NCBI GenBank assembly: GCA_963740085.1
Contig: CAVUCU010000007.1
Coordinates: 128,001-192,000, forward strand
DNA length: 64,000 bases
Direction of reading: 5' to 3'
Source of the DNA: Nitrospirota bacterium
GTDB lineage: Bacteria; Nitrospirota; UBA9217
Shown piece after piece: positions 3,736-49,751 of this stretch; the stretch's first letter is position 1; the number at the start of each line of letters is the position of its first letter. Below the pieces are notes generated by a model, which did no database searches, was not told the DNA's origin, and saw nothing but the letters and a program-made list of their open reading frames with translations. A program made the position numbers and the translations under genes.

Positions 3736-3829
3736 GGGTGAAAAGACCACGATCTATTGTACTTTTTTCGCCCTCCGTCTCCGCGTCCCCCCGTCACCGT
3801 GTCGGGTTTATCATCTATCGGAGTTGTTT

Positions 3830-5143
3830 ATGACCGACCAATTCATATCCCTCTCCTCCTGGCCGCAGGCGATCATGCATATCGACGCCGACGCCTTTTT
3901 TGCCTCCTGTGAGCAGGCGATCCATCCGGAACTTAAAGGGAGGCCGGTGATCTGCGGCAAGGAGCGCGGCATTGTCGCCGCCGCGAGCTATGAGGCAAAG
4001 GCCCGGGGAGTCACTCGCGGGGTGCGGCTTTCGGACGTGAAGAAGATCTGTCCCGATGCGGTCATTCTTCCGTCCGATTATGAGACCTACAGTCTCTTTT
4101 CCGTTCGCATGTTCGAGATCCTGCGGCGCTTTTCACCTGATGTCGAGGAGTACTCTATTGATGAGGCCTTTGTCGATCTGACCGGCCTGAGACGAAGCTA
4201 TCATGGCCCGTATGAAGTGATCGCCGAAAAAATGCGAACAGCGATCGAGACAGAGCTGGGGATCACCGTATCGGCCGGGGTAAGCCTTTCCAAGGTCCTG
4301 GCCAAGATCGGATCAAAGCACAATAAACCGAACGGTCTCACCATGATCCCGGGGAGAGATATTCATCGTTATCTGGAGAAACTGCCTGTCGAAAAGGTCT
4401 GGGGCATAGGGGCGAACACGGCGGCATTTCTGAGAAAGCACGGGATCACAACCGCTTTGCAGTTCACAAAAAAGGACGAGGGCTTCATAAAGAAGTTTCT
4501 GTCAAAACCCTACCAGGAGATCTGGCACGAGTTGAACGGCAGGAGCGTGTACCCGGTCACCACGGAGACAAAGAACAGCTACCAGTCGATAAGCAAGGCC
4601 AGGACCTTTACGCCGCCGTCCATGGATGAGGGTTTTGTATTTGCCCAGCTCTCCAAGAACCTGGAAAACGCATGCATCAAGGCAAGGAGGTACCGGCTGG
4701 CGGCCGCGCGGATCATTGTGTTCCTCAGGAAGCAGGATTTTACGAGCAGTGGAGTGGAAATTAAGCTGACCCGGCCTACCGCGTACCCGGTGGAACTGTT
4801 CGGGCTCCTGCGCCAGGGCTTTGAGCAGGTATTCGAATCCCGGGCCTTATACCGTCAGACAGGGGTCGTTCTTTCCGGCCTGGTCGCGGAGGGCGGGATC
4901 CAGTTCAGCCTTTTCGATGATACGACAAAGATAGAGAAGATGGCCAGGATCTACAGCGTCGTTGATGAGATCTCGGCGAAGTACGGAAAGCACACCATTC
5001 AGCACGCAGCGAGCCTGCCGACGAAGCTCCAGGCCCAGCACGAGGGAGAGCGGGGTGATGTCCCGGTAAGAAGAGCGGACCTGTTCAAAGGTGAGACCAG
5101 GCGACAGCGGCTGGGACTGCCCTTACTGCATATGAAGGTGTAA
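3830..5143 (+). CDS. dinB: Y-family DNA polymerase (DinB/Pol IV or UmuC-like)
   Basis: HIDADAFFASCEQ, AASYEAK, YSIDEAF and VWGIG motifs; QFSLF clamp-binding-like motif. Confidence 0.9.
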   Translation: MTDQFISLSSWPQAIMHIDADAFFASCEQAIHPELKGRPVICGKERGIVAAASYEAKARGVTRGVRLSDVKKICPDAVILPSDYETYSLFSVRMFEILRRFSPDVEEYSIDEAFVDLTGLRRSYHGPYEVIAEKMRTAIETELGITVSAGVSLSKVLAKIGSKHNKPNGLTMIPGRDIHRYLEKLPVEKVWGIGANTAAFLRKHGITTALQFTKKDEGFIKKFLSKPYQEIWHELNGRSVYPVTTETKNSYQSISKARTFTPPSMDEGFVFAQLSKNLENACIKARRYRLAAARIIVFLRKQDFTSSGVEIKLTRPTAYPVELFGLLRQGFEQVFESRALYRQTGVVLSGLVAEGGIQFSLFDDTTKIEKMARIYSVVDEISAKYGKHTIQHAASLPTKLQAQHEGERGDVPVRRADLFKGETRRQRLGLPLLHMKV

Positions 5144-5216
5144 CCGCTGCGCACGGCCGGTCCCCGGACATATCTGACACAGAAGCTGACACCCTTCACC
5201 CTGGAAAAGGCACTTG

Positions 5217-5349
5217 GACACGGAAGGGGCGGATTAAGATATGATAAAAGCGGATGAAAATCAAAAGAAGGAATTCAACCGGGGGGTGAAATATAATCCA
5301 AAGAAAAAAATCCGATTCTATCCGGTCCTTATCCGATTTGATCCGTGGC
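5217..5349. repeat. Periodic inverted-repeat element (CGGAT / ATCCG units)
   Basis: Left arm GACACGGAAGGGGCGGAT...AAGCGGAT; right arm ATCCG x4 ending ATCCGTGGC. Lies between convergent genes. Confidence 0.6.
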
Positions 5350-5441
5350 ACCTCTGTTGTCAGGTTCCCCCTCTCCCTGTCAGAGTGAATGCGTGGCTGA
5401 GATGAAAAGGCAAGGATAGATCAGCACAACAACTTCAGGCA

Positions 5442-6833
5442 TTATTTGTCGGGCCGGGTCTTTTTTTTCTTCTTTTTAACGAGGGTCGCTTTTTTTTCCG
5501 CCGGCGCGGCTCGCTTTTTATCCGGTTTAACTGCTCGCGGCGACGATGATGGTACGAACAGGGTCGTCGTGACCGAGGAGCTGACCAACGATGGTACGGG
5601 TACAGGAGAAGTCAAGCTCAACGATGAGCCGGCAGTGTCTTGCAGGAGCAGGGGCGCAGAATGAGTCAATCTAAGCGATGAACCCGGAGCATCCTGCTGG
5701 AGCGTTGTCTCCGGAGAGGTCGGTGTAATTGCCGTAGTTACAAGAGGCTGACTTACCAGGAAATTCGTCATCGATTGCTTTGCAGGAACAACGGTTTGAC
5801 GAGGGAGGGTTTCTTTGGTCGATTTCGCCTGGTAGTGATAGAGCGTGGCTCCGGCAATAAGGAGAAGCACCGCCGAGGCAACGAGGGCACTCCTGAGCCA
5901 TCCTCCACTCGTCGGCCTGCTGTTGATGATCCCGGCTTCCTGCTCCGGCATCGAGTCCAGGATATTCCGCGAGACGAGGTAGTCTGCAATGCGGCGAAGC
6001 GAGGCCGCCTTCGTGGTCCTGCCCGCAAGATATCTTCCCAGTTTTCTCTCGACCTCCAGCATTGAGCCGTAGCGCTGGTGTGGTTTTTTTCTGAGACACT
6101 TCTTGATGAGCCGCTGAAGTCGCCACGGAATTTCTTTGTTGACGCGGCGCGGAGCAAGGAACTTGTCTTTCAAGATCTTAACAGTGACCGAACGGGCATC
6201 CTCATCGCTAAAGGGCTTGACACCGGTAAACATCTCGTACAATACGACGCCGAAGGAAAAGATGTCCGATCGTACATCAAGCTGCTGACCGAGGATCTGC
6301 TCGGGTGACATATAGGCGGGCGTCCCGATGAGCGTGCCGGGCAAGGTCAGGGCCTCAAGGTTCCTGGTATGAGCGATGCCGAAATCCATGAGCTTGACCT
6401 CGCCGTTCCTCTTGATCATTATATTGCTCGGTTTGATGTCGCGGTGGATGAACCCGCGCATATGCGCATAATCCAGGGCATTGCTGACCTGAATGGCGAT
6501 CATGATCCCCACATCGACCGGCAGGGCCCCGATCTTCCCGATCACGTCGGCAAAGTTGGCGCCGTCAACGTATTCCATAACGATGCTGTAGGTCGGTTTG
6601 TTCCAGTAATCGTAGATGTGAACGATATTCTCGTGCTGGAGCGAAGCAGCAACCCTGCTTTCGCGCTCGAACCGCTTGACGATCTGGACATCAGCATGAT
6701 AGGCCTTCTTCAGTTCCTTGATGGCCACCGGCCGGCCAAGGGACTTCTGGACGGCCTTATACACTGTGGCCATGCCCCCGGCGCCGATCTCGCCCACGAC
6801 TTCATATTCATCTTTTATCTGTTGTCTCGGCAT
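5442..6833 (-). CDS. Hanks-type Ser/Thr protein kinase with TM helix and Pro/Ser/Thr-rich tail
   Basis: GAGGMATVY, VAIK, HRDIKPSN, DFG and GTPAYMSPE motifs. Start placed at MPRQQIKDEY because the longer ORF runs into the repeat. Confidence 0.93.
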   Translation of the reverse strand: MPRQQIKDEYEVVGEIGAGGMATVYKAVQKSLGRPVAIKELKKAYHADVQIVKRFERESRVAASLQHENIVHIYDYWNKPTYSIVMEYVDGANFADVIGKIGALPVDVGIMIAIQVSNALDYAHMRGFIHRDIKPSNIMIKRNGEVKLMDFGIAHTRNLEALTLPGTLIGTPAYMSPEQILGQQLDVRSDIFSFGVVLYEMFTGVKPFSDEDARSVTVKILKDKFLAPRRVNKEIPWRLQRLIKKCLRKKPHQRYGSMLEVERKLGRYLAGRTTKAASLRRIADYLVSRNILDSMPEQEAGIINSRPTSGGWLRSALVASAVLLLIAGATLYHYQAKSTKETLPRQTVVPAKQSMTNFLVSQPLVTTAITPTSPETTLQQDAPGSSLRLTHSAPLLLQDTAGSSLSLTSPVPVPSLVSSSVTTTLFVPSSSPRAVKPDKKRAAPAEKKATLVKKKKKKTRPDK

Positions 6834-6845
6834 AACGATATCCTT

Positions 6846-6983
6846 ATCCGGACAAGCCGGAACCAAATATGCCACAAAGACACGAAGGCACAAAGAAATT
6901 CATACAGAGGTTTGTGATTTACCGAGTCCCTAATTCTTCGTGTTCTCTTTGAAGCTTGGAGCCTTCGCGGCTGAATTTTGTTT
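6846..6983 (+). repeat. Dispersed intergenic repeat, copy 1 of 3
   Basis: ATCCGGACAAGCCGGAACCAAATATGCCAC...TAATTCTTCGTGTT...GGCTGAATTTTGTTT, shared with 17972-18162 and 48056-48220. Confidence 0.8.
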
Positions 6984-7011
6984 TATTTTAAGAAGATTGA
7001 TTTGTAACTGT

Positions 7012-7773
7012 CTAAACCTCCGTCACCCAAACCACGACCGCCGTGATATTGTCAATGCCCCCGCCGTCGTTTGCCGCGGCCAGCAGCTTGTGTACAGCGT
7101 CGCGGGGTCCCGTTGTTGACAGGAGACCGATGATCTCTGCATCATCAACCATTCCCGTCAGGCCGTCGGTGCACAGGAGCAGCCGGTCCTCCCGCTGCAG
7201 CGCGAGCGAGGTGATGTCCGCCTTCACCTCTTCATCGATGCCCAGGGCCCGGGTGATCACATGTCGGTAAGGACTCGTCCTCGCCTGCTCGGGCGTAAGT
7301 GCGCCGGCGCGGAGCTGCTCTGCCACGAAAGAATGGTCATTCGTCAGCTGCGTGAGCTTCCCGGACCGGAGGAGATAAGCACGGCTGTCACCGATATGAG
7401 CAATAAACATGCGGCCCTTCCGGAGCAGAAGTGCGGTAAGCGTGGTTGCCATACCTGCGAGCCCCGGATTGTGAGTGTGTACCGCGCGAATAGTACGGTT
7501 CGCGAGGTTGAGCGCATTCGTAAGCGCCATGGTTTCGGGATCTGCTCTGGACGTCACTCCTGCCGGAGGAGTCCTGTCCTTTTCTCCGAGCAGGTCCGGC
7601 ATGGAAGCCGCGAGTGTCTCAACGGCCATGCGGCTCGCGACCTCTCCTCCCTCGTTCCCCCCCACCCCGTCCGCAACAGCATAGAGGCAGAATTCGTCGT
7701 TCAGCAGATACGCGTCTTCGTTATTGGTTCTCTTTTTACCGGTATCGGTCCCGCCGAAGGAGGCTATCTTCAT
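7012..7773 (-). CDS. PP2C-family Ser/Thr phosphatase (Stp1/PrpC-like)
   Basis: RTNNED, VADGVGG, HIGDSRAY, LCTDGL and GGIDNIT motifs. Confidence 0.93.
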   Translation of the reverse strand: MKIASFGGTDTGKKRTNNEDAYLLNDEFCLYAVADGVGGNEGGEVASRMAVETLAASMPDLLGEKDRTPPAGVTSRADPETMALTNALNLANRTIRAVHTHNPGLAGMATTLTALLLRKGRMFIAHIGDSRAYLLRSGKLTQLTNDHSFVAEQLRAGALTPEQARTSPYRHVITRALGIDEEVKADITSLALQREDRLLLCTDGLTGMVDDAEIIGLLSTTGPRDAVHKLLAAANDGGGIDNITAVVVWVTEV

Positions 7774-8187
7774 TTACCCGATCTCGTATGTCCGGCTCTT
7801 ACCAATGTCTTCGAGTATAAACTGGAGAACAGTATCTCCAACGCTGAATTTATCGCCATGGTGCAAGGTGGTCTCTTTGATGAGCGTCCCACTCATCCGC
7901 GTACCGTTCGTACTCTCCATGTCTCTGAGCCGGTAATTTCCTTCACCATACTCGATGGCCGCATGCTGACGCGAGACCTGGGCGTCCTTCAGGGCAATGT
8001 CGGCGCCCGCATCCCTGCCGATCACCGTGTTCTCCTTGGTGATCAGGAATTCCATGCCCTCCCCGTATCCCTTTATGATAACCACGGAGGCTTGAAACCT
8101 TTCTGGTATTTTTTTCAACGGCTGAGATTGCTTCTTTATTTGGGTCTTGTCATTCCCGGATCTCGATCCTGTCATCTTCCCCTCCAA
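7774..8187 (-). CDS. Stand-alone FHA domain protein
   Basis: IGRD, VSRQHA and STNGT motifs; abuts the PP2C start. Confidence 0.9.
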   Translation of the reverse strand: MEGKMTGSRSGNDKTQIKKQSQPLKKIPERFQASVVIIKGYGEGMEFLITKENTVIGRDAGADIALKDAQVSRQHAAIEYGEGNYRLRDMESTNGTRMSGTLIKETTLHHGDKFSVGDTVLQFILEDIGKSRTYEIG

Positions 8188-8295
8188 CGTGACGTCATCA
8201 GCCTTCGAATATGATAGGGCAAACCCGGGAATACGTCAAGACCAAACCCGGTTTTAAGGATTATCATTCCCTTCGCATTGTGATACAATGTCCCC

Positions 8296-9645
8296 ATGAA
8301 AAAGAAGGACCAGGAAAATTCACCATCGCGGCGGACAACGAGCGACCAGACCAGGGCCCTGACCGGCCTGATCCGGAAGCCGCTTGTTCTGAAAAAAGCC
8401 CGCTTCGTGGTGAACCGTGGTCAGGACGAAGGCAAAGAGATGGTGCTCCAGGACCCCCGCGTCACGATCGGAACTCTCCGGGAGAACAATCTCGTGCTTA
8501 CCGACACCACGGTTTCGCGCCAGCACGCCATCGTGGAGGAAACGGCGAAGGGCTACCTGCTCCGCGATCTCGACAGTACCAACGGCACCTTCCTCAACGG
8601 CGTGCGCGTCCGCGAGGGATATCTAGCAGCCGGCTCCCTCATCCGTCTGGGACAGACCGAGCTGACCTTCTCGCCCCTGGAAGAGCATCTCGAGAACCTT
8701 CGCAGCTCAGCGGACCGCTTCGGCGCGCTTATCGGTTCCTCTCCTCCCATGCAGGAGGTCTACGGTATTCTCGAGCGCATCGCACCGACGGACGTCACGG
8801 TCCTTCTGGAAGGCGAGACCGGCACCGGCAAGGAGCTTGCCGCCCGTGCAATCCACGCCAACAGCCGAAGGGCCGACAGCCCTTTTATCGTGTTCGACTG
8901 CGGCGCTGTAGCGCCGAACCTCATCGAGAGCGAACTGTTCGGCCACGAGAAGGGCGCGTTCACCGATGCGGTCAAAGACCGTCAGGGTGCGTTCGAACTC
9001 GCGGACAAAGGCACCATCTTTCTTGACGAGATCGGGGAACTCTCCCTCGACCTCCAGCCGAAGCTCCTCCGCGCGCTGGACCAGCGCCAGACCAAGCGGG
9101 TGGGGGCCGACAAACCGGTCTCGATACACGTCCGGGTCATCTCCGCGACCAACAAGGACCTTGAAGAAGAAGTCAAGGCCGGACGATTCCGCGAGGACCT
9201 CTACTACCGCCTCTCGGTAGTGCGCGTAACCATGCCCCCGCTTCGGAAGAGGAAGGAAGACCTCGAAACCATCGCAGGGCTTTTGCTCGCGGAAATATCC
9301 GCGGAGATCAACAGGAAGATCACGGGCCTTTCTGCCGAGGCCTCTGCGGCGCTTGCCGCATATTCCTGGCCCGGCAATGTGCGCGAGCTCAAGAATGTCC
9401 TTGGGCGGGCCGCGGCGCTCTCCGACAGCGGGCGGATCGAGCCAAAGGACCTGTTCCTCTCCCAGGGGAAGAAGAACGTCACCCTCGAAGGTCTGAGCGG
9501 CAAAACACTGGAAGAGATCGAAAAGGCCGCTATCCATGCCACGCTCAAGTCAGTGAGCAACAATAAGACCGAGGCCGCCAGGGTGCTCGGCATCGCCTAT
9601 TCAACGCTGTACGAAAAGATGAAGAAGTACAGGATGAAGGAATAA
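8296..9645 (+). CDS. Sigma54-dependent enhancer-binding protein with N-terminal FHA domain
   Basis: FHA (VSRQHA, STNGT); Walker [30 protein letters not shown]; Fis-type HTH. Confidence 0.93.
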
Positions 9646-9661
9646 CATTATAACAAGAGGT

Positions 9662-9845
9662 AAACTCCCAGGTCGGTTGCGGAGCGCAGCAGCGATAAGA
9701 GCGCGATTGCCGGATCAAATGGCGGTCCTCCGATGCTCCAGGCGGCGCGGGCGAAGCGGAAGCGCCGCGAATGCTGTGCGTGTCCGGAAAATCGATGCCC
9801 CCTGCGCTCCTTGCGACTAAGCGAAGTAACTGACCTGAGTAATTT
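9662..9845. repeat. Structured MITE-like element between convergent genes
   Basis: Imperfect terminal inverted repeats (AAACTCCCAGGTCGGTTGC / GTAACTGACCTGAGTAATTT) plus nested IRs GGAGCGCAG/CTGCGCTCC and GCGGCGC/GCGCCGC. Confidence 0.5.
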
Positions 9846-9879
9846 CGAGAACAGTGTCTTTATCGAGGTAATCCAGAGA

Positions 9880-11082
9880 TCACCCTCCTATTCCCCGCTT
9901 CATCATCAGCACAGCGGCGATCGCACCGGCAATCACGAGCGTCTCTATAAAAAGCCATGGCCACTTTTTCTTGAACGCGAGCTTCGGTTTCAAGGTCCCC
10001 TCTTCCGTCTTTATCGTGATCTGCGGCCGATACTCCCGGCCAAGTTTCAGCTTTCTGTTTTCCACGCGGAATAAAAGCCGCGCAGCATCCGGCCCGAACG
10101 ACGCGGGCTTCGGCTTGATCCAGAGATCATCAGTTGACAAGGTCCCCGTTGATCCGCTGCACCCGAGAGCCATCACCGGAACGCTCACCCATGAGGTCTT
10201 TTTCCACCATGGTAGTCTTATCATTTTCCCCGGCTTGGCGTAAATGATCTTTCCCTTTCCCTTGACGGGCATGGACAGACCGAGCAAAACCTTCTGGATG
10301 GCAAGTTTCATAGCATTCGCGCTCTGGAAGCGCCTGTTCATGTCCGGTTCCAGTGCCTTCCTGATGATGGCAGCCGTCTCCCGGCTCAACCCCGGATTCA
10401 GCTGCCGCGGATCAGGAAAGTCAAGAGGATTTTCCGCAGGGTTCCGACCGGTGAGGCAATGATGCAGCGTGGCGCCGAGTGAAAAGATATCCGAGCGCAC
10501 GTCGGTCTGGGCCGTGCCGTACTGTTCAGGCGCTGCATACCCCGGTGTCCCGTATACATAGGTGTCTTTGATCTTGTCATCCTTGAAGAACCGGGCGATG
10601 CCGAAGTCGATGAGCTTCACGCGTCCGTTGCGGTCGATCATGATGTTCGACGGTTTGAGGTCCCGGAACACGATCGGCTGCGGCTTTTGCACGCTCAGAA
10701 AGTGCATGGCCCTGCAGACCTGGAGCGCCCAGGACAGCACCCGCAGCTCATCCATGGGTTTTCCTCTTTGCGCATCGAGCACCTGCTTCAGCGTATTGCC
10801 CCGGATGTATTCCATAACAATAGTGTAAGAGCCCAACCGGGAGAAGTAATCATACACTTTCGGAAGGTTCTGGTGCGTCAGACGCATGAGTATCCGGGCC
10901 TCGGTCTGGAACTGGGTGAGCGCTTCCCCGGGATTTTCCGCGGACTGGTTGCCCGGCGTCAATTCCTTTGCAGCGAGCACCGTGCCTCTTTGGAGGCGGT
11001 CCGAGACCTTATATACGCATCCCATTCCGCCTCTGCCGAGGACACCGACGACTTCATATCTTTTTTTGAGAAGACGTTTCAT
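9880..11082 (-). CDS. Ser/Thr protein kinase with C-terminal beta-rich domain and terminal TM helix
   Basis: GRGGMGCVY, FRDLKPSN, DFG and GTPGYAAPE motifs. Start placed at MKRLLKKRY. Confidence 0.92.
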   Translation of the reverse strand: MKRLLKKRYEVVGVLGRGGMGCVYKVSDRLQRGTVLAAKELTPGNQSAENPGEALTQFQTEARILMRLTHQNLPKVYDYFSRLGSYTIVMEYIRGNTLKQVLDAQRGKPMDELRVLSWALQVCRAMHFLSVQKPQPIVFRDLKPSNIMIDRNGRVKLIDFGIARFFKDDKIKDTYVYGTPGYAAPEQYGTAQTDVRSDIFSLGATLHHCLTGRNPAENPLDFPDPRQLNPGLSRETAAIIRKALEPDMNRRFQSANAMKLAIQKVLLGLSMPVKGKGKIIYAKPGKMIRLPWWKKTSWVSVPVMALGCSGSTGTLSTDDLWIKPKPASFGPDAARLLFRVENRKLKLGREYRPQITIKTEEGTLKPKLAFKKKWPWLFIETLVIAGAIAAVLMMKRGIGG

Positions 11083-11092
11083 TGTAACCACC

Positions 11093-11167
11093 AGTAAGAA
11101 GTAATAGGTAATAGGTGAGATGTAACCCATCACCATCACCCATTACTCATCACTCATTACTCATTAC
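11093..11167. repeat. Heptamer-periodic inverted repeat (GTAATAG / CATTACT-like)
   Basis: AGTAAGA AGTAATA GGTAATA GGTGAGA ... CCATTAC TCATCAC TCATTAC TCATTAC. Supplies the TAA stop of the upstream minus-strand gene. Confidence 0.7.
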
Positions 11168-13446
11168 GCTACTTTAACGCCGCACTTTGCGCAGAACTTC
11201 GCATTCGCTCTCATTGAAGAGCCGCAGCCGGCACAGAGCCGGCCGGTTCCCTCGCTGAACACGATCGTCGACTGTCCCATGTCTATGACATCACCGTCCG
11301 CAAGCACCTGCCTGCCCGTGACCTTCTTTTTGTTCACATAGGTCCCGGCAATTGAGCCTTTGTCTTCAATGATATAGCGCCCGTTCTCCTGGATGACCTC
11401 CGCATGGTGCTGCGCAATATCTTTGTCCTTGAACAGGCCGAGCATGTTCCGCTCGTCCCTGCCGATGGTCACGCTCGCGCCGATATCAATAGCCTTTTTC
11501 GTTCCCCTGCCCCGCACAAGGCTCAAGTGTCCGGTCTGATACTGCCGGTCCATCTTTCTGAGCGATATTGTCACGAACCCGGCGATGCTCATCAGGGGGA
11601 TGACGAAGGCCCAGCCAGGCGTCATGCCGCCCGCGCCAAAGAGCGACGATTCAGGCTGAAAGTACGTACGCGCAGTACGTGGTCCAGTACCGACTGCAAG
11701 CGATACGTTCCTGAGATAGTCGGCCCGCTTCCCGGTCTGATACGTGATGACATATTCGTTGCGCATCCGGTTGCTGATGGTCAAATAAATCTCCGAGAGG
11801 CCGTCCGCCTCGGGAGTGAAAAAATAGGAGCCGCCGGTCTCTTGCGCTATCCGTTCGAGCCTTGCTTTCCGCACGTCCTTTCCGAGACCGATCACCGTGA
11901 CCGAAACATAAGCCTTGGCGGCGGACTCGATCGCCTGGTCCATATCAAGCTCGCCGCGGTTTGCGATACCGTCGGTGAGGACGATCACGGCTTTTCTGCC
12001 AGAGACACCGCTGACCGCTTCAACTCCCCGGGCGATGCCGTCAAAGAGCGCGGTATGGCCTCCGGGTTGAATGGTCAGAACGGCCTGTCTCAGAATGTTT
12101 CGGCTGCCGGTCAGGGACTCGAGCGCGTCCACCTCGTCACTGAAGGCGAAAAGGGCCGCCCGGTCGCCGGAATCCATGAGCGATATAAAACGCAGCACCG
12201 ACTCTTTTGCGCGTTCAATTTTCTCTCCGGTCATGGACTCGCTCCGGTCCAGCACGATGGCAAGGTTGAGCGGCTCGCGAAGTCCGTTCGCCCCGGCCAT
12301 CTGCACACTGTCGATCAGGACAGGATAGTTGTTTTCCGTGATCGTTATATTTCCCCTGGTCAGCCCGAGCACCGGCTTGCCATGTTCATCAATACAGGAC
12401 AGGTAGGCCTTGACCAGGGGAAAACCGCCCAGATCAAACTGGGTGATCTGCACTGATGCCGGCTCGCCGGCCTGCGCCATCGTACCTCCTCCTGAAAAAA
12501 TCCCAAGCAGAAGCATCACGATTGCCGCCGTGACCGCTGCGGCTTTCGCAGGAACCTTGACCGTGGCTTTCTTCACCGCAGAGAACATGAGCAGGATACT
12601 GCCCACCCTGATGACATCGCCGTCGGCAAGCCTGCTGCTTCGCGTCATTTTCTGGTTGATGTATACGGCCTTGCCCTGTTCTTCGGTCTCAATGGAAAAG
12701 TGTCCGTTATTCCGCTTTATGACGGCATGCTGTATGTTCACGCCTTCCGCACCCGAGAGACAGACATCGGAACGGTCGTCCCTGCCCACCATATTCAGGT
12801 CCTTCAGGAGTGAAAACTCTCTGCCGGCATGCCTTCCTTTGATGACCGTGACCGTTGCCGATATCAAGGCCTCTTCAACAAGACTTATGCAAGAACCTAT
12901 GGACATTCCAAGCAGCGCAAGACCTGCAAGGGTGGACCATATCGATGTCACTGAAAGCGCGTTGAATATGCTCCCGCCGATCAGGCCGCCGAGCGAGCCG
13001 CCGATGAATCCATAGAGGGCCCGCTCGCGTGACCGGATCATCAGGCCGCCGCTCAGACCCACCGTGGCGCCGAGCATTGCCCATCCAAGGGCCACGGAAA
13101 GGGCTATGCCGACCGAAGCATTGAGTACCATGCCCTCGGCCACGATCAGTCCGAGCATGGTGAAGATCGTGTTGCCCAGGCCTGCTCCTGCTGCGCCTCC
13201 GAGCAGGCCGGCCATAGCGCCATAGAGAGAGCGCCTGAGCGCGGCCCTGAGCTGCCTGCCCGCTATCGCTTCGTGGCTCCAGATGAAGCCGCCGATGAAC
13301 ATCCCGGCGAGCGCCCCGCGCAAGATCTCCGCAAGCAATCCCGCTTCAGCAAAGTCCGAAGCCGAAAGGATGAAGAGCCAGGCAGCTGATCCACCGAGTG
13401 CGCCTGCCGCTCCGTACGAAAGGGTCTTATTTGAGAGCCTGATCAT
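11164..13446 (-). CDS. Membrane protein: Gly-rich multi-TM region, FHA, TM, vWA, TM, FHA, Zn-ribbon
   Basis: GxxxG-rich helices; FHA1 (VGRDD..QHA); vWA MIDAS DRSES, TALFD, LTDG; FHA2 (IGRD..HHA..GSIAGTYVN); CAGC..FCAKCG. Confidence 0.88.
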   Translation of the reverse strand: MIRLSNKTLSYGAAGALGGSAAWLFILSASDFAEAGLLAEILRGALAGMFIGGFIWSHEAIAGRQLRAALRRSLYGAMAGLLGGAAGAGLGNTIFTMLGLIVAEGMVLNASVGIALSVALGWAMLGATVGLSGGLMIRSRERALYGFIGGSLGGLIGGSIFNALSVTSIWSTLAGLALLGMSIGSCISLVEEALISATVTVIKGRHAGREFSLLKDLNMVGRDDRSDVCLSGAEGVNIQHAVIKRNNGHFSIETEEQGKAVYINQKMTRSSRLADGDVIRVGSILLMFSAVKKATVKVPAKAAAVTAAIVMLLLGIFSGGGTMAQAGEPASVQITQFDLGGFPLVKAYLSCIDEHGKPVLGLTRGNITITENNYPVLIDSVQMAGANGLREPLNLAIVLDRSESMTGEKIERAKESVLRFISLMDSGDRAALFAFSDEVDALESLTGSRNILRQAVLTIQPGGHTALFDGIARGVEAVSGVSGRKAVIVLTDGIANRGELDMDQAIESAAKAYVSVTVIGLGKDVRKARLERIAQETGGSYFFTPEADGLSEIYLTISNRMRNEYVITYQTGKRADYLRNVSLAVGTGPRTARTYFQPESSLFGAGGMTPGWAFVIPLMSIAGFVTISLRKMDRQYQTGHLSLVRGRGTKKAIDIGASVTIGRDERNMLGLFKDKDIAQHHAEVIQENGRYIIEDKGSIAGTYVNKKKVTGRQVLADGDVIDMGQSTIVFSEGTGRLCAGCGSSMRANAKFCAKCGVKVA

Positions 13447-13463
13447 TTTAATCCTCCCTTAAT

Positions 13464-13553
13464 CGATGGACGAGGGACGACCGCTCGCTTTCGCTCGCTC
13501 GGACGAAAGACGATTCTTTTGCGCGTCCGTCGTCCCTCGTCTCTCGTCCATCG
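13464..13553. repeat. Heptamer-periodic inverted repeat (GGACGAG / CTCGTCC-like) with nested insert
   Basis: CGATGGA CGAGGGA CGA [CCGCTCGCTTTCGCTCGCTCGG] ACGAAAGACGA ... TCGTCCC TCGTCTC TCGTCCA TCG. Confidence 0.65.
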
Positions 13554-13559
13554 TGATTG

Positions 13560-14003
13560 CTATGCCGCCTGGAGCGTCAATGCCAGCTTTCCGAATCTGA
13601 GCTCGTCGCCCGCTTTGACCATCTGTGGCGCATGGGGCTGGATCTTCTTCTTGTTGATATAGGTGCCGTTCGTGGAACCCATGTCCTCAACCGTGTAGTT
13701 TGCGCCCGACCGGTGAATGACCGCATGTTTGCGGGATACGCCCTTATCCATGCCGCCAAGATTGGTCAGGTCCAGATCCGGGAACACATCGCTGATGGGG
13801 TCCTCTCTGCCGATAATGATCTCGTCCTTAACAGGGATCTCGAGCGAGTTGCCATCGATGGACATGAGCACCAGACTTGTCCCTTCGCTGTCCATTTCAG
13901 CGGCCGTGTCCTTGCCTTCGATTACGGTTTCAAGCTTTGCTCCGCACTCTTCGCAGAAGAGCGCTCCTTCGATGTTTTCTATCTGACATGCTGTGCATTT
14001 CAT
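13560..14003 (-). CDS. Zn-ribbon plus FHA domain protein
   Basis: CTAC..FCEECG; IGRED, VSRKHA, GSTNGT. Confidence 0.9.
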   Translation of the reverse strand: MKCTACQIENIEGALFCEECGAKLETVIEGKDTAAEMDSEGTSLVLMSIDGNSLEIPVKDEIIIGREDPISDVFPDLDLTNLGGMDKGVSRKHAVIHRSGANYTVEDMGSTNGTYINKKKIQPHAPQMVKAGDELRFGKLALTLQAA

Positions 14004-14029
14004 GGTAATACCCTCCTTTTTTTAATTAT

Positions 14030-14101
14030 GCATGGCGCATAGCGCATGGTGCATAGGGTTATGTCTCTCTGACTCCTGACTCCTGACTCCTCACGCCTCA
14101 C
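14030..14101. repeat. Heptamer tandem repeats (GCATAGC-like x4, then CTGACTC x3)
   Basis: Read directly. Two non-complementary heptamer arms; a related GCATGG/GCATAG run occurs at 15387-15414. Confidence 0.65.
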
Positions 14102-15363
14102 TGCTTCATCGCCTGCGTCATTGCCTGGGTAAGCTTCCGTGTGCCGTACTCGAGTTTCTTGGTTCCTGCCGAGGTGAGCGCTCCGGTCTTCTTGAGCGAG
14201 AAGATCTCCCGCTCTGCTGCCTCAGCCAGGTCATCCTCGCCCAGGTTCAGGAGCACGGTTGCCGCCGACTGGAGCTTCTGCGTGGCTGCCGCGATATTCC
14301 CCGCCTCCACCTCGGTGAGCGCCCTGGTCTGGAGCTTGAAGGCGCTCACCTTCTCTACCAGGTTCATCACCTCGGCGTTCACCTTCGCTGCGGCTGCAGC
14401 GTCCTTGGTAAAGGTGACGAACAAATCCGTCTTGACGGAGCGGTCCTTGCTGTTCTGCGAGGGGAGGTCATAGCTGACCTCCACCTGCCCAAGTCGGAAC
14501 TGACCCGCCTTTTGTGCGGGAATTCGCGCTTCTATCAAAATTGACTGGCCTTTCCTGCCGTCAAGAGCACCGAGCTCGGTCATGACCGCGCCATTGCGCA
14601 CGGCCCTCGTGCTCACATCGACGATCAGGGGAGAGGTGACATATACTTTGTACGGCTTCACACCCCGGCTCATGCGGGCCGTTACCCTGAGGTTCATCGC
14701 TGCAACGGCCTGCATGCCCTCCACTTCCTGTTGAAACGCATCAAGGATAGCGATGGGGTTCTGGATCCAGTGCGAGTTTCCCCGGGATTGCTCGGCAAGC
14801 CGGAGCAGGAGTTTCTCGTTCCATTCATTACCGATGCCGATGCTCGTTATCGCGATGCCCTGCTTTCCTGCCTCTTCAGCAAGTTTGAGACACACGTCTT
14901 CGTCATCCCACGTCTGTCCGTCCGTAAGCAGAAGGATCCGGTTCACGCGGTCCTTTGCATGGCCCTTCTTCACCTCTGCCAGACCTGCCTTGAGCCCATC
15001 AGAGATCTGGGTGCCGCCGCGTGCGATCACGTTCGCGAGCTTGCCCTTGATCTCCTCGCGATTCTGCGCCGGTTGGCTCGGTATCAGCGTCTCGACCTGA
15101 TCGTCAAAGATCGTGACGGAGATGAGGTCGTCATCGCTCAAATGGTCCACCACGTATCCCACCGCTTCTTTTAAATTGTCCAGTTTCTCGCCATCCATGG
15201 AACCGCTCCGGTCGAGCACCAGGCTGAAGTTCGCCGGCATGTTGCCTGAAACCGGCCCGCTCCCGGCTTTGATGTCAACGAGAGCATAGATTGCCTGTTC
15301 CGTCTCTGTGGCCAGCACCGTGTCCTTGCTCATAATGCATCGTACCTCTAATCCGTTCTTCAT
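14098..15363 (-). CDS. Cytoplasmic vWA domain protein (YfbK/CLCA-like bacterial type)
   Basis: LVLDRSGSM MIDAS, GGTQI, LLLTDG; helical C-terminus ending KKLEYGTRKLT. Confidence 0.9.
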   Translation of the reverse strand: MKNGLEVRCIMSKDTVLATETEQAIYALVDIKAGSGPVSGNMPANFSLVLDRSGSMDGEKLDNLKEAVGYVVDHLSDDDLISVTIFDDQVETLIPSQPAQNREEIKGKLANVIARGGTQISDGLKAGLAEVKKGHAKDRVNRILLLTDGQTWDDEDVCLKLAEEAGKQGIAITSIGIGNEWNEKLLLRLAEQSRGNSHWIQNPIAILDAFQQEVEGMQAVAAMNLRVTARMSRGVKPYKVYVTSPLIVDVSTRAVRNGAVMTELGALDGRKGQSILIEARIPAQKAGQFRLGQVEVSYDLPSQNSKDRSVKTDLFVTFTKDAAAAAKVNAEVMNLVEKVSAFKLQTRALTEVEAGNIAAATQKLQSAATVLLNLGEDDLAEAAEREIFSLKKTGALTSAGTKKLEYGTRKLTQAMTQAMKQ

Positions 15364-15431
15364 TGTCTATTCCTCCTTTGTCATTCGCATGGTGTCTAAG
15401 GCATGGAGCATAGGGTGCTGTCCTCCGCCCT

Positions 15432-16388
15432 CTATCCCACCGTAACCACTACCGCGGTAATATTGTCCTTGCCGCCATGTGCGTTCGCCAACCGAACCAG
15501 TTCCTCACTCGCTGACCGTGCATCTTTTCCGGATAAAACGGCCTGGTGAATGTCCTTATCTCTCACCTCTCCCCAGAGTCCATCCGTGCACAGCATGAGA
15601 TGACCGCCCTTTTTCAGCTCCACCCGGAATGTATCCACGGTGATATTCTCATCAGTCCCGATCGTGCGATAGAGCAGATTGGACTTGGGGTGGCCCCTTG
15701 CCTCTTCTTTCGTCATTTTCCCAATGGCAACCAGCTTTGCAACCAGGGAATGGTCCCGGGTGATCTGGGTGATGGACCGTTCTTCTATCCAGTAGACCCT
15801 GCTGTCCCCGACATTCGCGATATAGGCGGTATTGTCAATTACCAGCGCGAGACTGATCGTAGTCCCCATGTTCGATCCCCTGTGCGCGCCCTCTTTTTTC
15901 ACTTCGCTGTTTGCCTTCCGCACGACATGCTCGATGAGCTTGAGTGGGTTCTCGTTCTGCTCCAGATGTTCTTCTATTTCCCTGCAAGCGGTCTCCACCG
16001 CGATCCTGCTTGCAACTTCTCCTGCGTCGTGTCCGCCCATACCGTCAGCCACGACATACAAAGACGCTTTCCCGAAAGAAACACAGGAGAAGCTGTCCTC
16101 GTTCTGGGGCCTGACCATGCCCGTGTTCGTCAGACCATGCCAGGCATCGGACACTGGTACGGGCACAGGACATCCGGCGTCAAGATCAGCCGCTGCACCT
16201 GTCTCAGGCCTCAGCCTCCGCGTATAGGCCGGTTGGAGCACCTGAGTCATTGATCTGGGTGTCTCTACGAAGGGAAATATTGCCCTTGCTTCAAGAACCT
16301 CGTCTGTCAATGTATGCTTTGCAGTTGCCTCCATCTTCTCGCCCCTTGTAAACATATTTTTCATCCAGTTTATCCAACCATGTGCCAT
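15432..16388 (-). CDS. PP2C-family Ser/Thr phosphatase with N-terminal extension
   Basis: RPQNED, VADGMGG, NVGDSRVY, LCTDGL, GGKDNIT; AGGAG RBS upstream. Confidence 0.92.
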   Translation of the reverse strand: MAHGWINWMKNMFTRGEKMEATAKHTLTDEVLEARAIFPFVETPRSMTQVLQPAYTRRLRPETGAAADLDAGCPVPVPVSDAWHGLTNTGMVRPQNEDSFSCVSFGKASLYVVADGMGGHDAGEVASRIAVETACREIEEHLEQNENPLKLIEHVVRKANSEVKKEGAHRGSNMGTTISLALVIDNTAYIANVGDSRVYWIEERSITQITRDHSLVAKLVAIGKMTKEEARGHPKSNLLYRTIGTDENITVDTFRVELKKGGHLMLCTDGLWGEVRDKDIHQAVLSGKDARSASEELVRLANAHGGKDNITAVVVTVG

Positions 16389-16444
16389 GGTCAGCTCCTG
16401 TTCTTTTCATCCGATTCTCAGCTCGCCATCTTGGTCTACTCATT

Positions 16445-16460
16445 TGCATCTGCCATGCCA
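16445..16460 (-). promoter_or_regulatory. Sigma54 (-24/-12) promoter of the PP2C-vWA-FHA-kinase operon
   Basis: Minus strand reads TGGCATGGCAGATGCA, an exact GG-N10-GC, about 55 bp upstream of the ATG at 16388. Confidence 0.75.
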
Positions 16461-16589
16461 GAATTGAAATGAACGATCGCGACGGCACACGGGCAGACAG
16501 AAGTCTTTACGATACAGACGGTTGTGGGTATTGATGCTGCGGGTGTATTGCTCGGGTGGGGGGGATGATTCGCTGGAAATTATATGGTT

Positions 16590-16616
16590 ATCGAAAGGGG
16601 GTATTCGATTTTCGAA
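16590..16616. promoter_or_regulatory. Candidate enhancer (UAS) palindromes
   Basis: ATCGAA-N8-TTCGAT overlapping TTCGA-TTT-TCGAA, about 130-155 bp upstream of the -24 element. Confidence 0.4.
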
Positions 16617-16733
16617 GACTAGTGCACGGTAAAACTAATTCTTGATTATATTGCACACATATTTATCGTTTATTACCTTGGCATGATTTTAGTTACAGCT
16701 AAGTCAATGCATACCTAAAAGGGAAGAATATTT

Positions 16734-16866
16734 AACCGCGAAGGCGCCAAGTACGCGAAGAAAATCTATGGGCTTTTGTTTTAAACACGAAAGCTTTTTT
16801 GACGTCCTTTGCGACCCTGGCGCCTTTGCGGTTCAAAGACTTTGGTTTCGGCTTTTCCGGGTTAGG
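16734..16866. repeat. Nonamer-periodic inverted repeat followed by the reverse-strand CCGGAxAAGCCGxAACCAAA end motif
   Basis: AACCGCGAAGGCGCCAAGTACGCGAAG versus CTTTGCGACCCTGGCGCCTTTGCGGTT (22/27), then TTTGGTTTCGGCTTTTCCGGGTTAGG. Confidence 0.65.
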
Positions 16867-16910
16867 TAACATGACGGTTCGGAACCATCAACAATTAATT
16901 TTATGAGGTA

Positions 16911-17414
16911 CTAGTGTTCTTTGAGAAGGACTTCGGTGACAGCCTTGCGGCTCGATGCATGTTTCTGTGCCTTGGGATGACCGACGGCAACGACTGCCAT
17001 GAGCTCCATCTCTTTTGGCAAACCGAGAAGCGTGCGCACCGCCTCGGCATTCTTGAGGATCTCCCCAAGCCAGACCGCACCCAACCCCATCGCGTGAGCC
17101 GCGAGAAGCATGTTCTGGATGCAGGCACCCATGGCCTGGTGATCCTTTACGTCGTTATACATTACCGTCCTGTCAACGAAAACGGCAATGCAGGCCGGCG
17201 CCCGTTCGATAACAAAGCCGTAGTTTGTCTGCTTGCCAAGCTCCTTCTTGACGTCTGTCTTCTGAACGATCACGAACCGCCACGGCTGGTTGTTCAACCC
17301 CGACGGCGCCCATGTCCCGGCCTTGATGATCTCGAGCAACCGATCCCGCTCAACAGTCTGTTCAGTAAATTCCCGAACGCTCCGGCGCGTATATATTCCT
17401 TCGAGAATATCCAT
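16911..17414 (-). CDS. Nitroreductase family protein
   Basis: RRSVREF, APSGLNNQPWRF, IQNMLLAAHAMGLG. Confidence 0.92.
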   Translation of the reverse strand: MDILEGIYTRRSVREFTEQTVERDRLLEIIKAGTWAPSGLNNQPWRFVIVQKTDVKKELGKQTNYGFVIERAPACIAVFVDRTVMYNDVKDHQAMGACIQNMLLAAHAMGLGAVWLGEILKNAEAVRTLLGLPKEMELMAVVAVGHPKAQKHASSRKAVTEVLLKEH

Positions 17415-28752: not shown

Positions 28753-28768
28753 TGGCATGCTAGATGCA
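28753..28768 (+). promoter_or_regulatory. Sigma54 (-24/-12) promoter
   Basis: TGGCATGCTAGATGCA (GG-N10-GC), 40 bp upstream of the ATG at 28808. Confidence 0.75.
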
Positions 28769-43652: not shown

Positions 43653-44378
43653 TCACGGGCTTCCTATTCTGAGCAGATCGTCCACGGTCCTTATGCCCCA
43701 CTGCGGCAGTTCGCCGAGCATGCGCTGCAAGAGCTGAGCGGTAATGAACGCATCGCTCAGAGCATTGTGTGCATTCTGCACGGTTATATTATATTCTGCG
43801 GCGATCGAGAAGAGATCGCCCCTGTCCGGAGAACCGCCGTGATAGGCGCAACGGTCTTCTTTCCTGGCAGCGATCCAATTGTAGAGTTTGTACGTATCAA
43901 CCACCCGGTTCCTCAACGGCTTCCCGTACAGTTCCTTCATCTCCCGGTTCAGGAACTGGAGATCGATGGACACGACATGGCCTGCCATAAGCGAGTCATC
44001 GCAGAACTCAAGGAACTGCGGGAGCAGGGTGTCGATCCGGGGCGATCCAGCCGCTTCCGTGGGCGTGATCCCGTGGATGATCACGCTCCCCGCGGTCAGT
44101 GCCGTGCGGGGATCGACCTGGCCGTAGAACGTTTCTCCCAGGAGTATCCTCCCGCCGCGTACCTTCACGGCTCCGATCGAGACAATGGAATCCTTTTTTG
44201 CCTTGAGTCCGGTGAGCTCCGTATCGAAGACCACAAAGTTCGCGTTACGCAGGTCTTCAGCTTTATCTCCGGAGCGAAGCCCTGCGGACGACGTCCCTTG
44301 CCGCTGATCGGACTGACCTGCACCCGCCCCGTCCCTGCCGAAGAATGTGCTCGTATAGTGGATGAATGAACTTATCAT
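43653..44378 (-). CDS. DEDDh 3'-5' exonuclease-fold protein (DnaQ-like)
   Basis: FDTELTGL, GH..IDL, HNALSDA. Confidence 0.88.
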   Translation of the reverse strand: MISSFIHYTSTFFGRDGAGAGQSDQRQGTSSAGLRSGDKAEDLRNANFVVFDTELTGLKAKKDSIVSIGAVKVRGGRILLGETFYGQVDPRTALTAGSVIIHGITPTEAAGSPRIDTLLPQFLEFCDDSLMAGHVVSIDLQFLNREMKELYGKPLRNRVVDTYKLYNWIAARKEDRCAYHGGSPDRGDLFSIAAEYNITVQNAHNALSDAFITAQLLQRMLGELPQWGIRTVDDLLRIGSP

Positions 44379-46318: not shown

Positions 46319-46848
46319 GTTCTCTACGTAAGCAAAATAAAGACCATATTTATGAATTGTAGAAAACTGTTTCCATTTCATTAGTTCCAATTATGCATGC
46401 TCACTGACTTACGGAAATTACAAGAAAATGCTGTTATTTACCTTTTCACGTTTTACTCGGCGACAATGCGATAAATTACATAAAATCAATATGTTTTGTT
46501 GTCTTCTCTGTAGCCTGTGACAAAAATAGCAGTAGAATGCATTATGGTGCATAATGGGAATTTATAGAGGTTCACACTTTATAAATATGGACTAAAAAAA
46601 ATTCTTCACCGCGAATTCATATGATGAAGTCATATACTTTAAGGCAGCCATCTCATCCGTAACTAATAGTAATATGCGCCGTGCAGGCAGGCTACTAAAG
46701 GTAACCGGGATGGCCGCCAGTAATTTCACACAGTATACTTAAACTATGCTTATAATAAATCATCGTGATCACGCATCTGTCCAATTCACTTAACAACGGC
46801 TCGATCATTTGTTAGTATTGAACGAACCAATTATTTGGGAAAGGTCAT

Positions 46849-47460
46849 ATGGCGGGAATAAACAAGTCTGGTGAAGACAAGGCGTGGGAGATACTTTCGA
46901 CGCTGAAGCCGGCGGATGTCTGTAAAGCAGCATCAGTTGTCTATGATGCGACGTCCATAAGTTACCAGGTGACGTCATTCGGCATGAACTTTATCGTTTC
47001 CGAGCGAGACAAAAGGTTCTCAAGCCCGGCTTCGGAGAGCGATGTGCTGCTCGGAAGGCTCGGTTCCTTCTTCCGGCTCTCTGTCCTTTGGTATCTGGTT
47101 AGTGCCAAGGACATTGCCTGCACCAACAGGACCGTGAAACTCGAACACATCAGGGGCGGCGAGATATTCACCAGGGGATCACATGTCCTGCCGCTCGACA
47201 GTGTCGCGAACAAGTATGGGAACAACCGGGAAGGATTTTTTGCAAAAGGGAAAGATCTTGGTGGTGAGATCATGACTTACGGGGACGCTTCGCTCCGGCT
47301 TGCGCCTTTGCCACGAATACCCGTCACCCTGGTGCTCTGGCTGGAGAACAACGAATTTCCCGCCCGTCTTGACCTGCTGTTCGATTCAACCTGTGTTATG
47401 CAATTGCCCACGGACATCATCTGGTCCATTGCCATGATGAGCGTACTGATCATGCTCTGA
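46849..47460 (+). CDS. DUF3786-like hypothetical protein
   Basis: PLPRIPVTLVLW..EFPARLDLLFD pattern. Confidence 0.7.
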   Translation: MAGINKSGEDKAWEILSTLKPADVCKAASVVYDATSISYQVTSFGMNFIVSERDKRFSSPASESDVLLGRLGSFFRLSVLWYLVSAKDIACTNRTVKLEHIRGGEIFTRGSHVLPLDSVANKYGNNREGFFAKGKDLGGEIMTYGDASLRLAPLPRIPVTLVLWLENNEFPARLDLLFDSTCVMQLPTDIIWSIAMMSVLIML

Positions 47461-47572
47461 TCCGGTCCGGTTTGAACTTACCCCCGTGAAGATCCGGATG
47501 GAAAACGCTGATGGACTTCCCGTACATCCTCCTCTGGTTTTTTGCGTGCACGCACCGGCCGGTCCGATACCG

Positions 47573-48043
47573 TCATCGATTGTTGTTCTTTTCAATTATC
47601 TGCTTCGCCATGGACGCGAGTACACCATCCGGGCTCACGGTAAATGGCTCGACGGCCTGAATCGCCCTCGGTCCGCCTATCTGTCCCAAGCTGCGGATCG
47701 CGCTCTTCATCACGACGGGCGACTGATCAACAGCAAGCAACTGTATGAGAGGCGAGATCGCCTCGCGGGAACCGATCATGCCCAGCGCTTTTACCGCGCT
47801 CTTCCGCACCCGCTCTTCCGGGTCGCTGAACATGGCGATAAGCCGCGGCACAGCCTCATGCGAACCAAGCTCCCCGAGGGAATAGGCGGCGTTGTTCCTG
47901 ACCGCCATGATTTTGTCGTCGAGCGCCTCTATCAAAGCCTTCTCGGCCCCCTTGCCCTTAAGCTTCCCGAGTTCGGCGGCGGCGTTCACCCGGACCATCC
48001 CGAGACCGTTCTTCAGATCATTGATCAAACGCTCAAGACTCAT
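47573..48043 (-). CDS. HEAT-repeat (PBS lyase-like) protein
   Basis: Repeated VRxxAAxxLGxLG; GGAGG RBS. Confidence 0.88.
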   Translation of the reverse strand: MSLERLINDLKNGLGMVRVNAAAELGKLKGKGAEKALIEALDDKIMAVRNNAAYSLGELGSHEAVPRLIAMFSDPEERVRKSAVKALGMIGSREAISPLIQLLAVDQSPVVMKSAIRSLGQIGGPRAIQAVEPFTVSPDGVLASMAKQIIEKNNNR

Positions 48044-48055
48044 CGCCTCCTCCTA

Positions 48056-48220: not shown

Positions 48221-48252
48221 TTGAGAAGTTTTTTTATGTGCGGCGCGCATCC

Positions 48253-49602: not shown

Positions 49603-49751
49603 CGAAGCCTCAATCAGAATAAAATGCAAAAGTCAAAATGCGAAAGGTAAAGTGCACCACCACATGAGACGCGGATGACAGGATTTCGTTCGGAGAAATC
49701 TTTTTGAGTTTCCTAAGCGGCCCTTTTCCTATAAGGCATGTGCCTCAGCGG

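Follow-up and report, generated by a model that had tools for sequence, protein, structure and literature searches.

To our knowledge it is poorly resolved which kinase switches sigma54 activators that contain an FHA domain, and in what manner. The question is raised by a nine-gene cluster at positions 5442-16388 of a 64-kb stretch of Nitrospirota DNA (GCA_963740085.1, contig CAVUCU010000007.1, positions 128,001 to 192,000; hereafter the window), which encodes Ser/Thr kinases, PP2C phosphatases, FHA proteins, von Willebrand factor A (vWA) proteins and an FHA-containing enhancer-binding protein (EBP). In an earlier reading made from the letters alone (the sequence-only reading), EBP was proposed to turn on the neighbouring membrane operon as part of a two-tier circuit. 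This proposal is supported by a conserved enhancer, by sigma70-type promoters of the left genes and by a candidate phospho-tail in EBP, the pairing of EBP with the enhancer being a prediction. With modest confidence, we favour the view that the cluster is a self-contained two-tier regulon for phosphothreonine (pThr) signalling, whose most likely role is to report on the cell envelope.

Gene content of the cluster

Nine open reading frames (ORFs) occupy the region in the layout that the sequence-only reading had given. From left to right they encode K1, P1, F1, EBP, K2, TMV, ZF, V and P2; the K1 unit and the operon are on the minus strand and EBP is on the plus strand.

5442..6833, minus strand: K1, Hanks Ser/Thr kinase (probable ATG at 6833, ORF reaching 6893; Pfam Pkinase 1e-59, motifs, hydropathy)
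7012..7773, minus strand: P1, PP2C phosphatase of the Stp1/IreP type (NCBIfam NF033484 above cut-off; motifs)
7774..8175, minus strand: F1, small canonical FHA protein (probable ATG at 8175; ORF 7774-8187)
8296..9645, plus strand: EBP, sigma54 activator with FHA, AAA+ and helix-turn-helix (HTH) domains (domain matches; N-terminal D-x-T19-x-x-L tail; GAFTDA loop)
9880..11082, minus strand: K2, Hanks kinase with a C-terminal membrane anchor (probable ATG at 11082, ORF to 11139; motifs)
11164..13446, minus strand: TMV, membrane protein of FHA-vWA-FHA type (AlphaFold model, motifs)
13560..14003, minus strand: ZF, zinc ribbon and canonical FHA (ArnA-like profile matches)
14098..15363, minus strand: V, vWA, split beta-sandwich and C-terminal helical bundle (ArnB-like by sequence and fold)
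15432..16388, minus strand: P2, PP2C phosphatase (PP2C profile match; double T-x-x-L extension)

The kinase, PP2C, MIDAS (metal ion-dependent adhesion site) and AAA motifs are all intact, as judged against patterns that we take to be the standard ones. The host genome is 3.46 Mb in size and 98.5% complete. In phmmer searches of all its ORFs, no other PP2C or FHA gene was found outside the cluster and no second strong kinase, one weak match (E 3e-6) excepted. All Hanks kinases, PP2C phosphatases and FHA proteins of this genome are encoded in the cluster. The count of five FHA readers in the sequence-only reading held in part: ZF and F1 have canonical FHA domains, whereas the FHA of EBP lacks the first Arg and both FHA domains of TMV are degenerate.

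Promoters and a predicted enhancer

Four regulatory elements were assigned to the three transcription units.

8211..8239, minus strand: sigma70-type -35/-10 promoter for F1-P1-K1 (10/12 positions match)
8281..8289, plus strand: extended -10 element, probable leaderless sigma70-type promoter of EBP (20/23 loci)
16445..16460, minus strand: sigma54 -24/-12 promoter (motif and conservation across loci)
16583..16618, minus strand: tandem palindromic upstream activator sequence, predicted EBP enhancer (157 bp upstream of the promoter; strong site at 16602-16618 and a weaker one at ~16583-16597)

A sigma54 promoter had been suggested ahead of P2, the first gene of the operon P2-V-ZF-TMV-K2, and conservation bears this out. 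Of 29 related loci scored, 27 have the element ahead of P2, compared with 2.5% in shuffles, which is beyond chance. Four loci with short upstream DNA had been dropped from the scoring, and the two misses were one locus without P2 and one without upstream DNA. The sigma54 gene is present in the genome.

The promoter is accompanied in 28 loci by a palindrome with the consensus TATTCGA-N3-TCGAATA, followed by a weaker second site. The spacing between palindrome and promoter falls into groups of 113, 134-137, 144-147 and 153-159 bp, in steps of about 11 bp or roughly one helical turn. Enhancer sites usually lie ~80-150 bp from a sigma54 promoter according to the available excerpts of PMC7910581, and the spacings observed here (113-159 bp) are close to that range. 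With a matrix trained on the related loci, the window excluded, the palindrome at the promoter scored 47 bits versus 15 for the next best of 187 sigma54-like sites in this genome, where the enhancer copy is unique. Strict matches to the pattern were found in 12 of 61 genomes, all of them carriers of the operon (control 0), while 32 of the 64 genomes of the family had palindrome and promoter together (0 for the reversed pattern as a control). At locus L038, which has lost P2, both elements are still with the operon. A second family of genomes has a variant palindrome and an EBP with the same HTH recognition helix. We consider it probable, on the pattern of co-occurrence, that EBP acts at the palindrome as its predicted enhancer. 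An IHF-like site, scored with the IHF consensus, lies between enhancer and promoter in 21 of 29 loci versus 45% in shuffles; none is present in the window. The window holds a second sigma54-like element at 28753-28768 (plus strand), without a palindrome.

The left genes (F1-P1-K1 and EBP) look to be under sigma70-type promoters. The extended -10 element of EBP, located six bases before the start codon and with no Shine-Dalgarno sequence, was found in 20 of 23 loci versus 7.6% in shuffles, and on the K1-side strand TTGAC-N16..19-TAnnnT was found in 14 of the 23, a set that includes loci lacking a divergent kinase operon. The 23 loci include some from the same genome.

Conservation and co-occurrence of the three units

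The related loci are titled Nitrospirota. In 25 of 35 close loci the full order P2-V-ZF-TMV-K2 was kept; nine of the others were cut by contig or locus ends and one (L038) lacked P2. EBP is convergent behind the operon in 17 of the 35, and all nine genes occur in order in six. The identity of V between genera is 63-80%. In a quick tree of V the window protein sits among family members, and no direction is indicated. A Bacteroidetes-labelled contig (L047, JAGDMJ010000493.1) bears a Nitrospirota-type operon with 73% identity that is nested in this tree, probably a binning error.

A failure of the three units to co-occur elsewhere, which the sequence-only reading had named as the outcome that would speak against it, did not materialise. 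TMV was found in 21 of 36 same-family genomes and the K1 orthologue in the same 21. An EBP orthologue was found in 18 of these 21 carriers, the three genomes without it being 63-86% complete. The remaining 15 genomes, among them all eight congeners, lack TMV, K1 and EBP. In the second family, TMV, K1 and EBP were all present in 3/3 genomes. For ZF, orthologues turned up in 22 of 36 genomes of the own family and in 3/3 of the second family; at E 1e-25 there were none in the 111 genomes from 22 other families. These counts cover kin genomes, which are not independent, and do not amount to a statistical test. In the same-family genomes the units co-occur even where they are unlinked; the EBP gene is beside the operon in 10 of 18 genomes and beside K1 in 10 of 18.

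The activator and the tier 1 proteins

EBP has an AAA+ core with Walker A and B motifs, an HTH whose recognition helix is nearly invariant across the two families, and a GAFTDA loop, which in second-family EBPs is GAFTGA. Its FHA keeps S-R-x-H and S-[TS]-N-G, and the first Arg is replaced in 21/21 sequences. Ahead of the FHA lies the tail D-x-T19-x-x-L, in which T19, the acidic residue at -2 and the hydrophobic residue at +3 are kept in 14/14 first-family orthologues, making it a candidate phospho-tail. Such a self-tail Thr before an FHA, with acidic -2 and hydrophobic +3 positions, is known from Bdellovibrio DgcB and from GarA/OdhI (available excerpts of PMC6733907), and EBP and partly F1 share this arrangement. 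Unlike in DgcB, the output domain is an AAA+ sigma54 activator and not GGDEF, and the equivalent of R61 is lost, those of S75, R76, T96 and N97 being kept.

F1 combines a canonical FHA (G-R, S-R-x-H, S-T-N-G) with a GarA/OdhI-like layout: an N-terminal Thr (T15 of the ORF) is present in 8/8 sequences, with an acidic -2 residue in 7/8, and the Thr of a C-terminal T-Y-E-[IL] tail in 8/8. The D-x-T tail is shared by EBP and F1, while V has basic T-R/K-K-L motifs instead. At five loci from five genomes (L078 and L106-L109) F1 is duplicated in tandem before P1-K1, with the unit away from EBP. K1 has one transmembrane (TM) helix and a C-terminal stalk rich in Ser, Thr and Pro, as judged by hydropathy; by eye, the C-terminus of second-family K1 (L061, L062, L064) resembles a PEGA-like beta domain.

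The operon proteins and their relation to known systems

V and ZF resemble the ArnB/ArnA pair. The best Protein Data Bank (PDB) matches of the ZF profile were ArnA (5A8I and 8S05_C, E 4e-14, both domains aligned), and the G-R, S-R-x-H and S-T-N-G motifs of its FHA are invariant. The best PDB sequence match of V was ArnB (8S05_A). Its model (predicted local distance difference test, pLDDT, 87) gave Foldseek TM-scores of 0.76 to 4FX5 and 0.66 to 8S05_A, with Sec23/24 weaker. V has an intact MIDAS and 14 conserved Thr residues, seven of them in the C-terminal bundle (346-412), with a hydrophobic +3 residue in 84-100%. In Sulfolobus acidocaldarius the ArnA/ArnB switch is served by the kinase ArnC and the phosphatase PP2A, according to the available excerpts of PMC6509490 and PMC12852372. 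The latter describes how sequential phosphorylation of bundle Thr residues in ArnB converts loose contact with the zinc finger to tight binding by the FHA; it calls the downstream mechanism unresolved and places ArnB-like folds elsewhere mostly outside multi-phosphorylation.

The likeness to ArnAB (PDB 8S05, 5A8I) extends to adjacent genes for a zinc-finger-FHA protein and a vWA/beta-sandwich/helical-bundle protein, an intact MIDAS, a Thr cluster in the bundle, and a kinase and phosphatase in the network. In contrast to ArnAB, the present system is bacterial, uses PP2C and not PP2A, has its kinase and phosphatase inside the operon, adds TMV, and has a sigma54-controlled operon and an FHA activator of its own; flagellin was not found. 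By sequence and structural model the pair is ArnB/ArnA-like, yet it is not the arn network.

TMV consists of six N-terminal TM helices, an FHA, a signal-peptide-like helix, a vWA domain, a further TM helix, a second FHA and, at the C-terminus, a zinc ribbon similar to the one in ZF and ArnA. In the AlphaFold model (pLDDT 75.5) the vWA domain, with an intact MIDAS, is predicted to be periplasmic, and the hydrophobic helix before it terminates, in 22 of 26 orthologues, with an A-x-A motif that is signal-peptidase-like. In the window protein, as in the orthologue rows listed, both FHA domains are without the Ser of S-x-x-H and without the N-G pair. The first, strongly conserved though degenerate, is probably a protein-docking surface. 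TMV is a fusion of two halves that are each found as a separate gene elsewhere; TMV-like fusions at 28-36% identity occur in other lineages, and Foldseek returned generic vWA matches only. K2, the last gene product of the operon, is held by its C-terminal membrane anchor. The N-terminal extension of P2 carries a double T-x-x-L motif (T48 in 29/32, T56 in 31/32). In the second family (L061:1503-3074, L062, L064) P2 is ~525 aa long and, by eye, an N-terminal region resembling a pseudokinase and zinc ribbon replaces the T-x-x-L tail.

All four homologues of V, K2, ZF and P2 are found in one operon of Deinococcus radiodurans, the vWA-STPK-FHA-PP2C operon DRA0331-DRA0334 (available excerpts of bioRxiv 10.64898/2026.01.23.701218): V at 28% identity and E 1e-25, K2 at E 1e-31, ZF at E 2e-4 for the zinc ribbon and E 3e-16 for the FHA, and P2 at E 1e-31. 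The Deinococcus operon differs in gene order; TMV, the FHA activator and the second kinase-phosphatase unit are absent from the 13-kb region examined, and no upstream sigma54 motif was seen by eye. This operon and archaeal ArnA/ArnB, neither of them named in the sequence-only reading, are the nearest relatives known.

FHA-EBPs of Myxococcus presumably have an FHA-AAA+-HTH architecture. One of them is MXAN4899 of Myxococcus xanthus (available excerpts of PMC11980068 and PMC7910581). Unlike in M. xanthus, the genome studied here has just one FHA-EBP, along with two kinases, a single predicted enhancer and a single target operon.

The ArnAB switch, the Deinococcus-type four-gene core, FHA activators and self-tail control of FHA domains are thus known already. 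The predicted wiring that joins an FHA-sigma54 activator, its enhancer and a tier 1 module to a membrane kinase operon with an ArnAB-like switch is apparently undescribed: as in the sequence-only reading, which knew of no account of the exact combination, we found no description in a search of the open literature, which takes in few subscription papers. Here a genome offers no more than two kinases and two phosphatases, with one FHA activator, Thr19 as a predicted phospho-site and a predicted enhancer and promoter, and its bacterial ArnB-like V keeps the Thr cluster. This small part list would allow the circuit to be rebuilt in E. coli, making both the switching of FHA activators and the downstream mechanism of ArnAB directly testable. 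The cluster further places the broader class of vWA-kinase-FHA-PP2C operons in a regulatory frame.

Proposed mechanism

The model starts from what is observed, namely the genes, their motifs and folds, their co-occurrence, and the conservation of promoter and palindrome. In tier 1, expressed from the sigma70-type promoters, K1 would sense a change in the envelope and, with P1 and F1, set the phosphorylation of EBP Thr19. The phosphorylated tail would dock on the FHA of EBP itself, as in DgcB and GarA, and so govern AAA+ activity, F1 with its similar tail serving as an optional buffer. That K1 and P1 act on Thr19 is an assignment towards which we lean slightly, the sign of the effect being left free. 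EBP would then bind the tandem palindrome and, through DNA looping, fire the sigma54 promoter of P2-V-ZF-TMV-K2. In tier 2, K2 would phosphorylate the Thr-rich bundle of V, ZF would bind it in a loose-to-tight switch of the ArnA/ArnB type, and P2 would reset phosphorylated V. Such a phospho-switch between V and ZF is considered likely. TMV would act as a periplasmic receptor or scaffold that links a metal-binding vWA domain to cytoplasmic docking domains, its FHA domains there probably not being pThr readers.

A more far-reaching version, which we regard as unlikely, would be a bacterial ArnAB-type pathway that is complete, having an input as well as a step of transcription. A cascade of envelope kinases would turn on EBP through its own phospho-tail, and the zinc ribbon of the induced TMV would recruit V, with its Sec23/24-core-like fold, to the inner membrane. 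Gated by phosphorylation, this recruitment would couple a periplasmic MIDAS ligand to a cytoplasmic assembly, TMV possibly being cut by signal peptidase into two membrane proteins.

Extra enhancer copies and the output of the regulon

In relatives, additional copies of palindrome plus promoter precede envelope-type ORFs only. In five cases (G031, G113, G121, G173 and L119) they stand before a 111-aa protein with two TM helices; the copy of G031 is at C77:4158-4722 (L217/L220) and is orphaned, and the others are at L213, L214, L218 and L119:5110-5734. In G019 (L094:6195-6466) and G174 (L215:1059-1403) they precede unannotated hydrophobic ORFs of 37-39 aa with good ribosome-binding sites; by eye, the two peptides are alike. 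In G098 (L216:1049-2067) the target is a 263-aa signal-peptide protein with a C-terminal Phe, as in outer-membrane beta-barrels. The 111-aa family, found in 14 of 64 family genomes, starts with a D-x-T motif as in EBP, and a bacterial SH3 domain is present in its longer paralogues. Neither the 111-aa nor the 263-aa protein matched a Pfam family above cut-off, and an Atlas search with the 111-aa protein returned its own cluster only (0.97, low recognition). Every target identified is an envelope protein or a member of the membrane operon, and no copy among those identified precedes an appendage gene. Based on these predicted sites, an envelope-related output of the regulon is put forward tentatively. 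Because the extra enhancer copies precede envelope proteins, envelope signalling is likelier than defence.

Weighing the alternatives

Several observations weigh against an envelope-reporting two-tier regulon. The 111-aa family was not found in this genome, and the enhancer is present at only 4 of 20 loci of that family (some loci are duplicates). G031, a 97% complete genome, has palindrome, promoter and 111-aa gene and no orthologue of TMV, K1 or EBP, and no EBP orthologue was found in the three less complete carriers (63-86%). The genome contains 18 other full-length sigma54-activator ORFs, so that the pairing of EBP with the palindrome rests on co-occurrence among non-independent kin. The EBP FHA lacks the Arg matching the phosphate-contacting R61 of DgcB, and the second-family EBPs (n=3) have a shorter tail that does not align to T19. 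Only 6 of the 21 carriers, whose assemblies are fragmented, have the three units side by side, and F1 or P1 is absent from several loci (F1 from L038, L042 and L050; in other loci it is doubled).

In one alternative the same regulon would be controlled differently, either by tier 2 feedback on the FHA of EBP (through phospho-V or the T-x-x-L tail of P2, with ZF competing) or by an EBP that is independent of phosphorylation, with K1-P1-F1 as a parallel module that does no more than co-occur. The conserved T-x-x-L motifs of V and P2 fit an FHA cleft, the EBP FHA is non-canonical, and EBP is found beside the operon as often as beside K1. However, the distribution of K1 is identical to that of the operon, EBP and the K1 unit form a divergent pair, and it is with F1 that EBP shares its tail, the motifs of V being different. 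We consider such control rather unlikely. An appendage switch responding to nutrients or lifestyle, as ArnAB is for the archaellum, would be suggested by the homology of V and ZF to ArnB and ArnA, and sigma54 often controls appendage genes. Yet a flagellar output was not supported, no flagellin domain being found in this genome; among the 21 carriers flagellin matches, the only appendage marker searched, were weak in three and strong in none, and none of the enhancer copies stands before an appendage gene. This explanation is improbable.

The sequence-only reading had also linked the cluster to TerY-P and YegLKI and, through them, to anti-phage defence. We take these systems to be defined by a short vWA protein, a YegI-type kinase and a PphC-type phosphatase. 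The E. coli set YegL-PphC(YegK)-YegI has the same domain classes, but the families differ in all three positions: V matched YegL, a vWA-only protein of 219 aa, at no better than E 8e-5 over the vWA core, and neither K2 against YegI nor P2 against PphC was significant. V had no PADLOC match, and the analogy was not borne out. An inducible anti-phage or conflict system of this or another kinase-based kind would fit the patchy distribution and block loss of the cluster, and kinase-PP2C-vWA triads occur in predicted conflict systems (available excerpts of PMC7159879). The PADLOC check gave a mixed outcome: both kinases match kinase models, but the matches span the generic kinase domain only, and V, TMV, ZF and F1 match nothing. 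Moreover, the cluster has no effector domain such as a nuclease, its proteins are highly identical between genera, GC content at third codon positions (GC3) is like that of the flanks, the recurrent neighbours are housekeeping genes and the locus is stable. A defence role is improbable. The absence of structural genes of type VI and type VII secretion systems (T6SS, T7SS), noted in the sequence-only reading, held for the two markers searched, the T6SS sheath protein VipB and WXG100, neither of which was found in the genome; secretion genes were also absent from the 22 largest neighbour clusters. Within that scope, the other outcome that the sequence-only reading had named as refuting, a cluster routinely belonging to a known secretion system, was not seen either. 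A phospho-regulatory module of such a system (PpkA-PppA-Fha type) was rejected on the two markers. Among these explanations we retain the envelope-reporting regulon.

History of the locus and neighbouring features

The cluster is part of a larger block.

5144..17413, no strand: 12.3-kb block of the nine genes and a nitroreductase between dinB and dcd (absent as a unit in three congeners)

In the congeners G001, G003 and G006 the gap between dinB and dcd is only ~130-220 bp, versus 12.3 kb here. The same upstream neighbours recur at the locus in other genera, where the recurrent neighbours are housekeeping genes; since these neighbours are shared and the GC3 of the block is like that of its flanks, loss of the block in the congeners is favoured over its recent insertion. 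Recent horizontal insertion was not supported on the same grounds, nor were att-like repeats found at the block ends among the 20 largest repeat families listed.

The intergenic regions at window positions 13440-13555, 14030-14100, 15387-15422 and 16731-16836 contain short heptamer-like repeats in tandem as well as inverted repeats that are imperfect, and repeats like those between the operon genes occupy the empty site of the congeners. The left flank of the cluster carries a LexA/UmuD-like S24 peptidase (81-596) and a Y-family DinB/UmuC-like polymerase (3824-5143), which may be chance neighbours or may indicate a link to the SOS response; the cited literature connects the relatives in Deinococcus and archaea with DNA damage. 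Farther along the window (44378-52709), genes for a cNMP-CBS-DUF294 nucleotidyltransferase, an SSF transporter, an acetyl-CoA synthetase and a pair formed by an SSF-histidine kinase and a sigma54 response regulator make up a locus for apparent regulation of acetate uptake.

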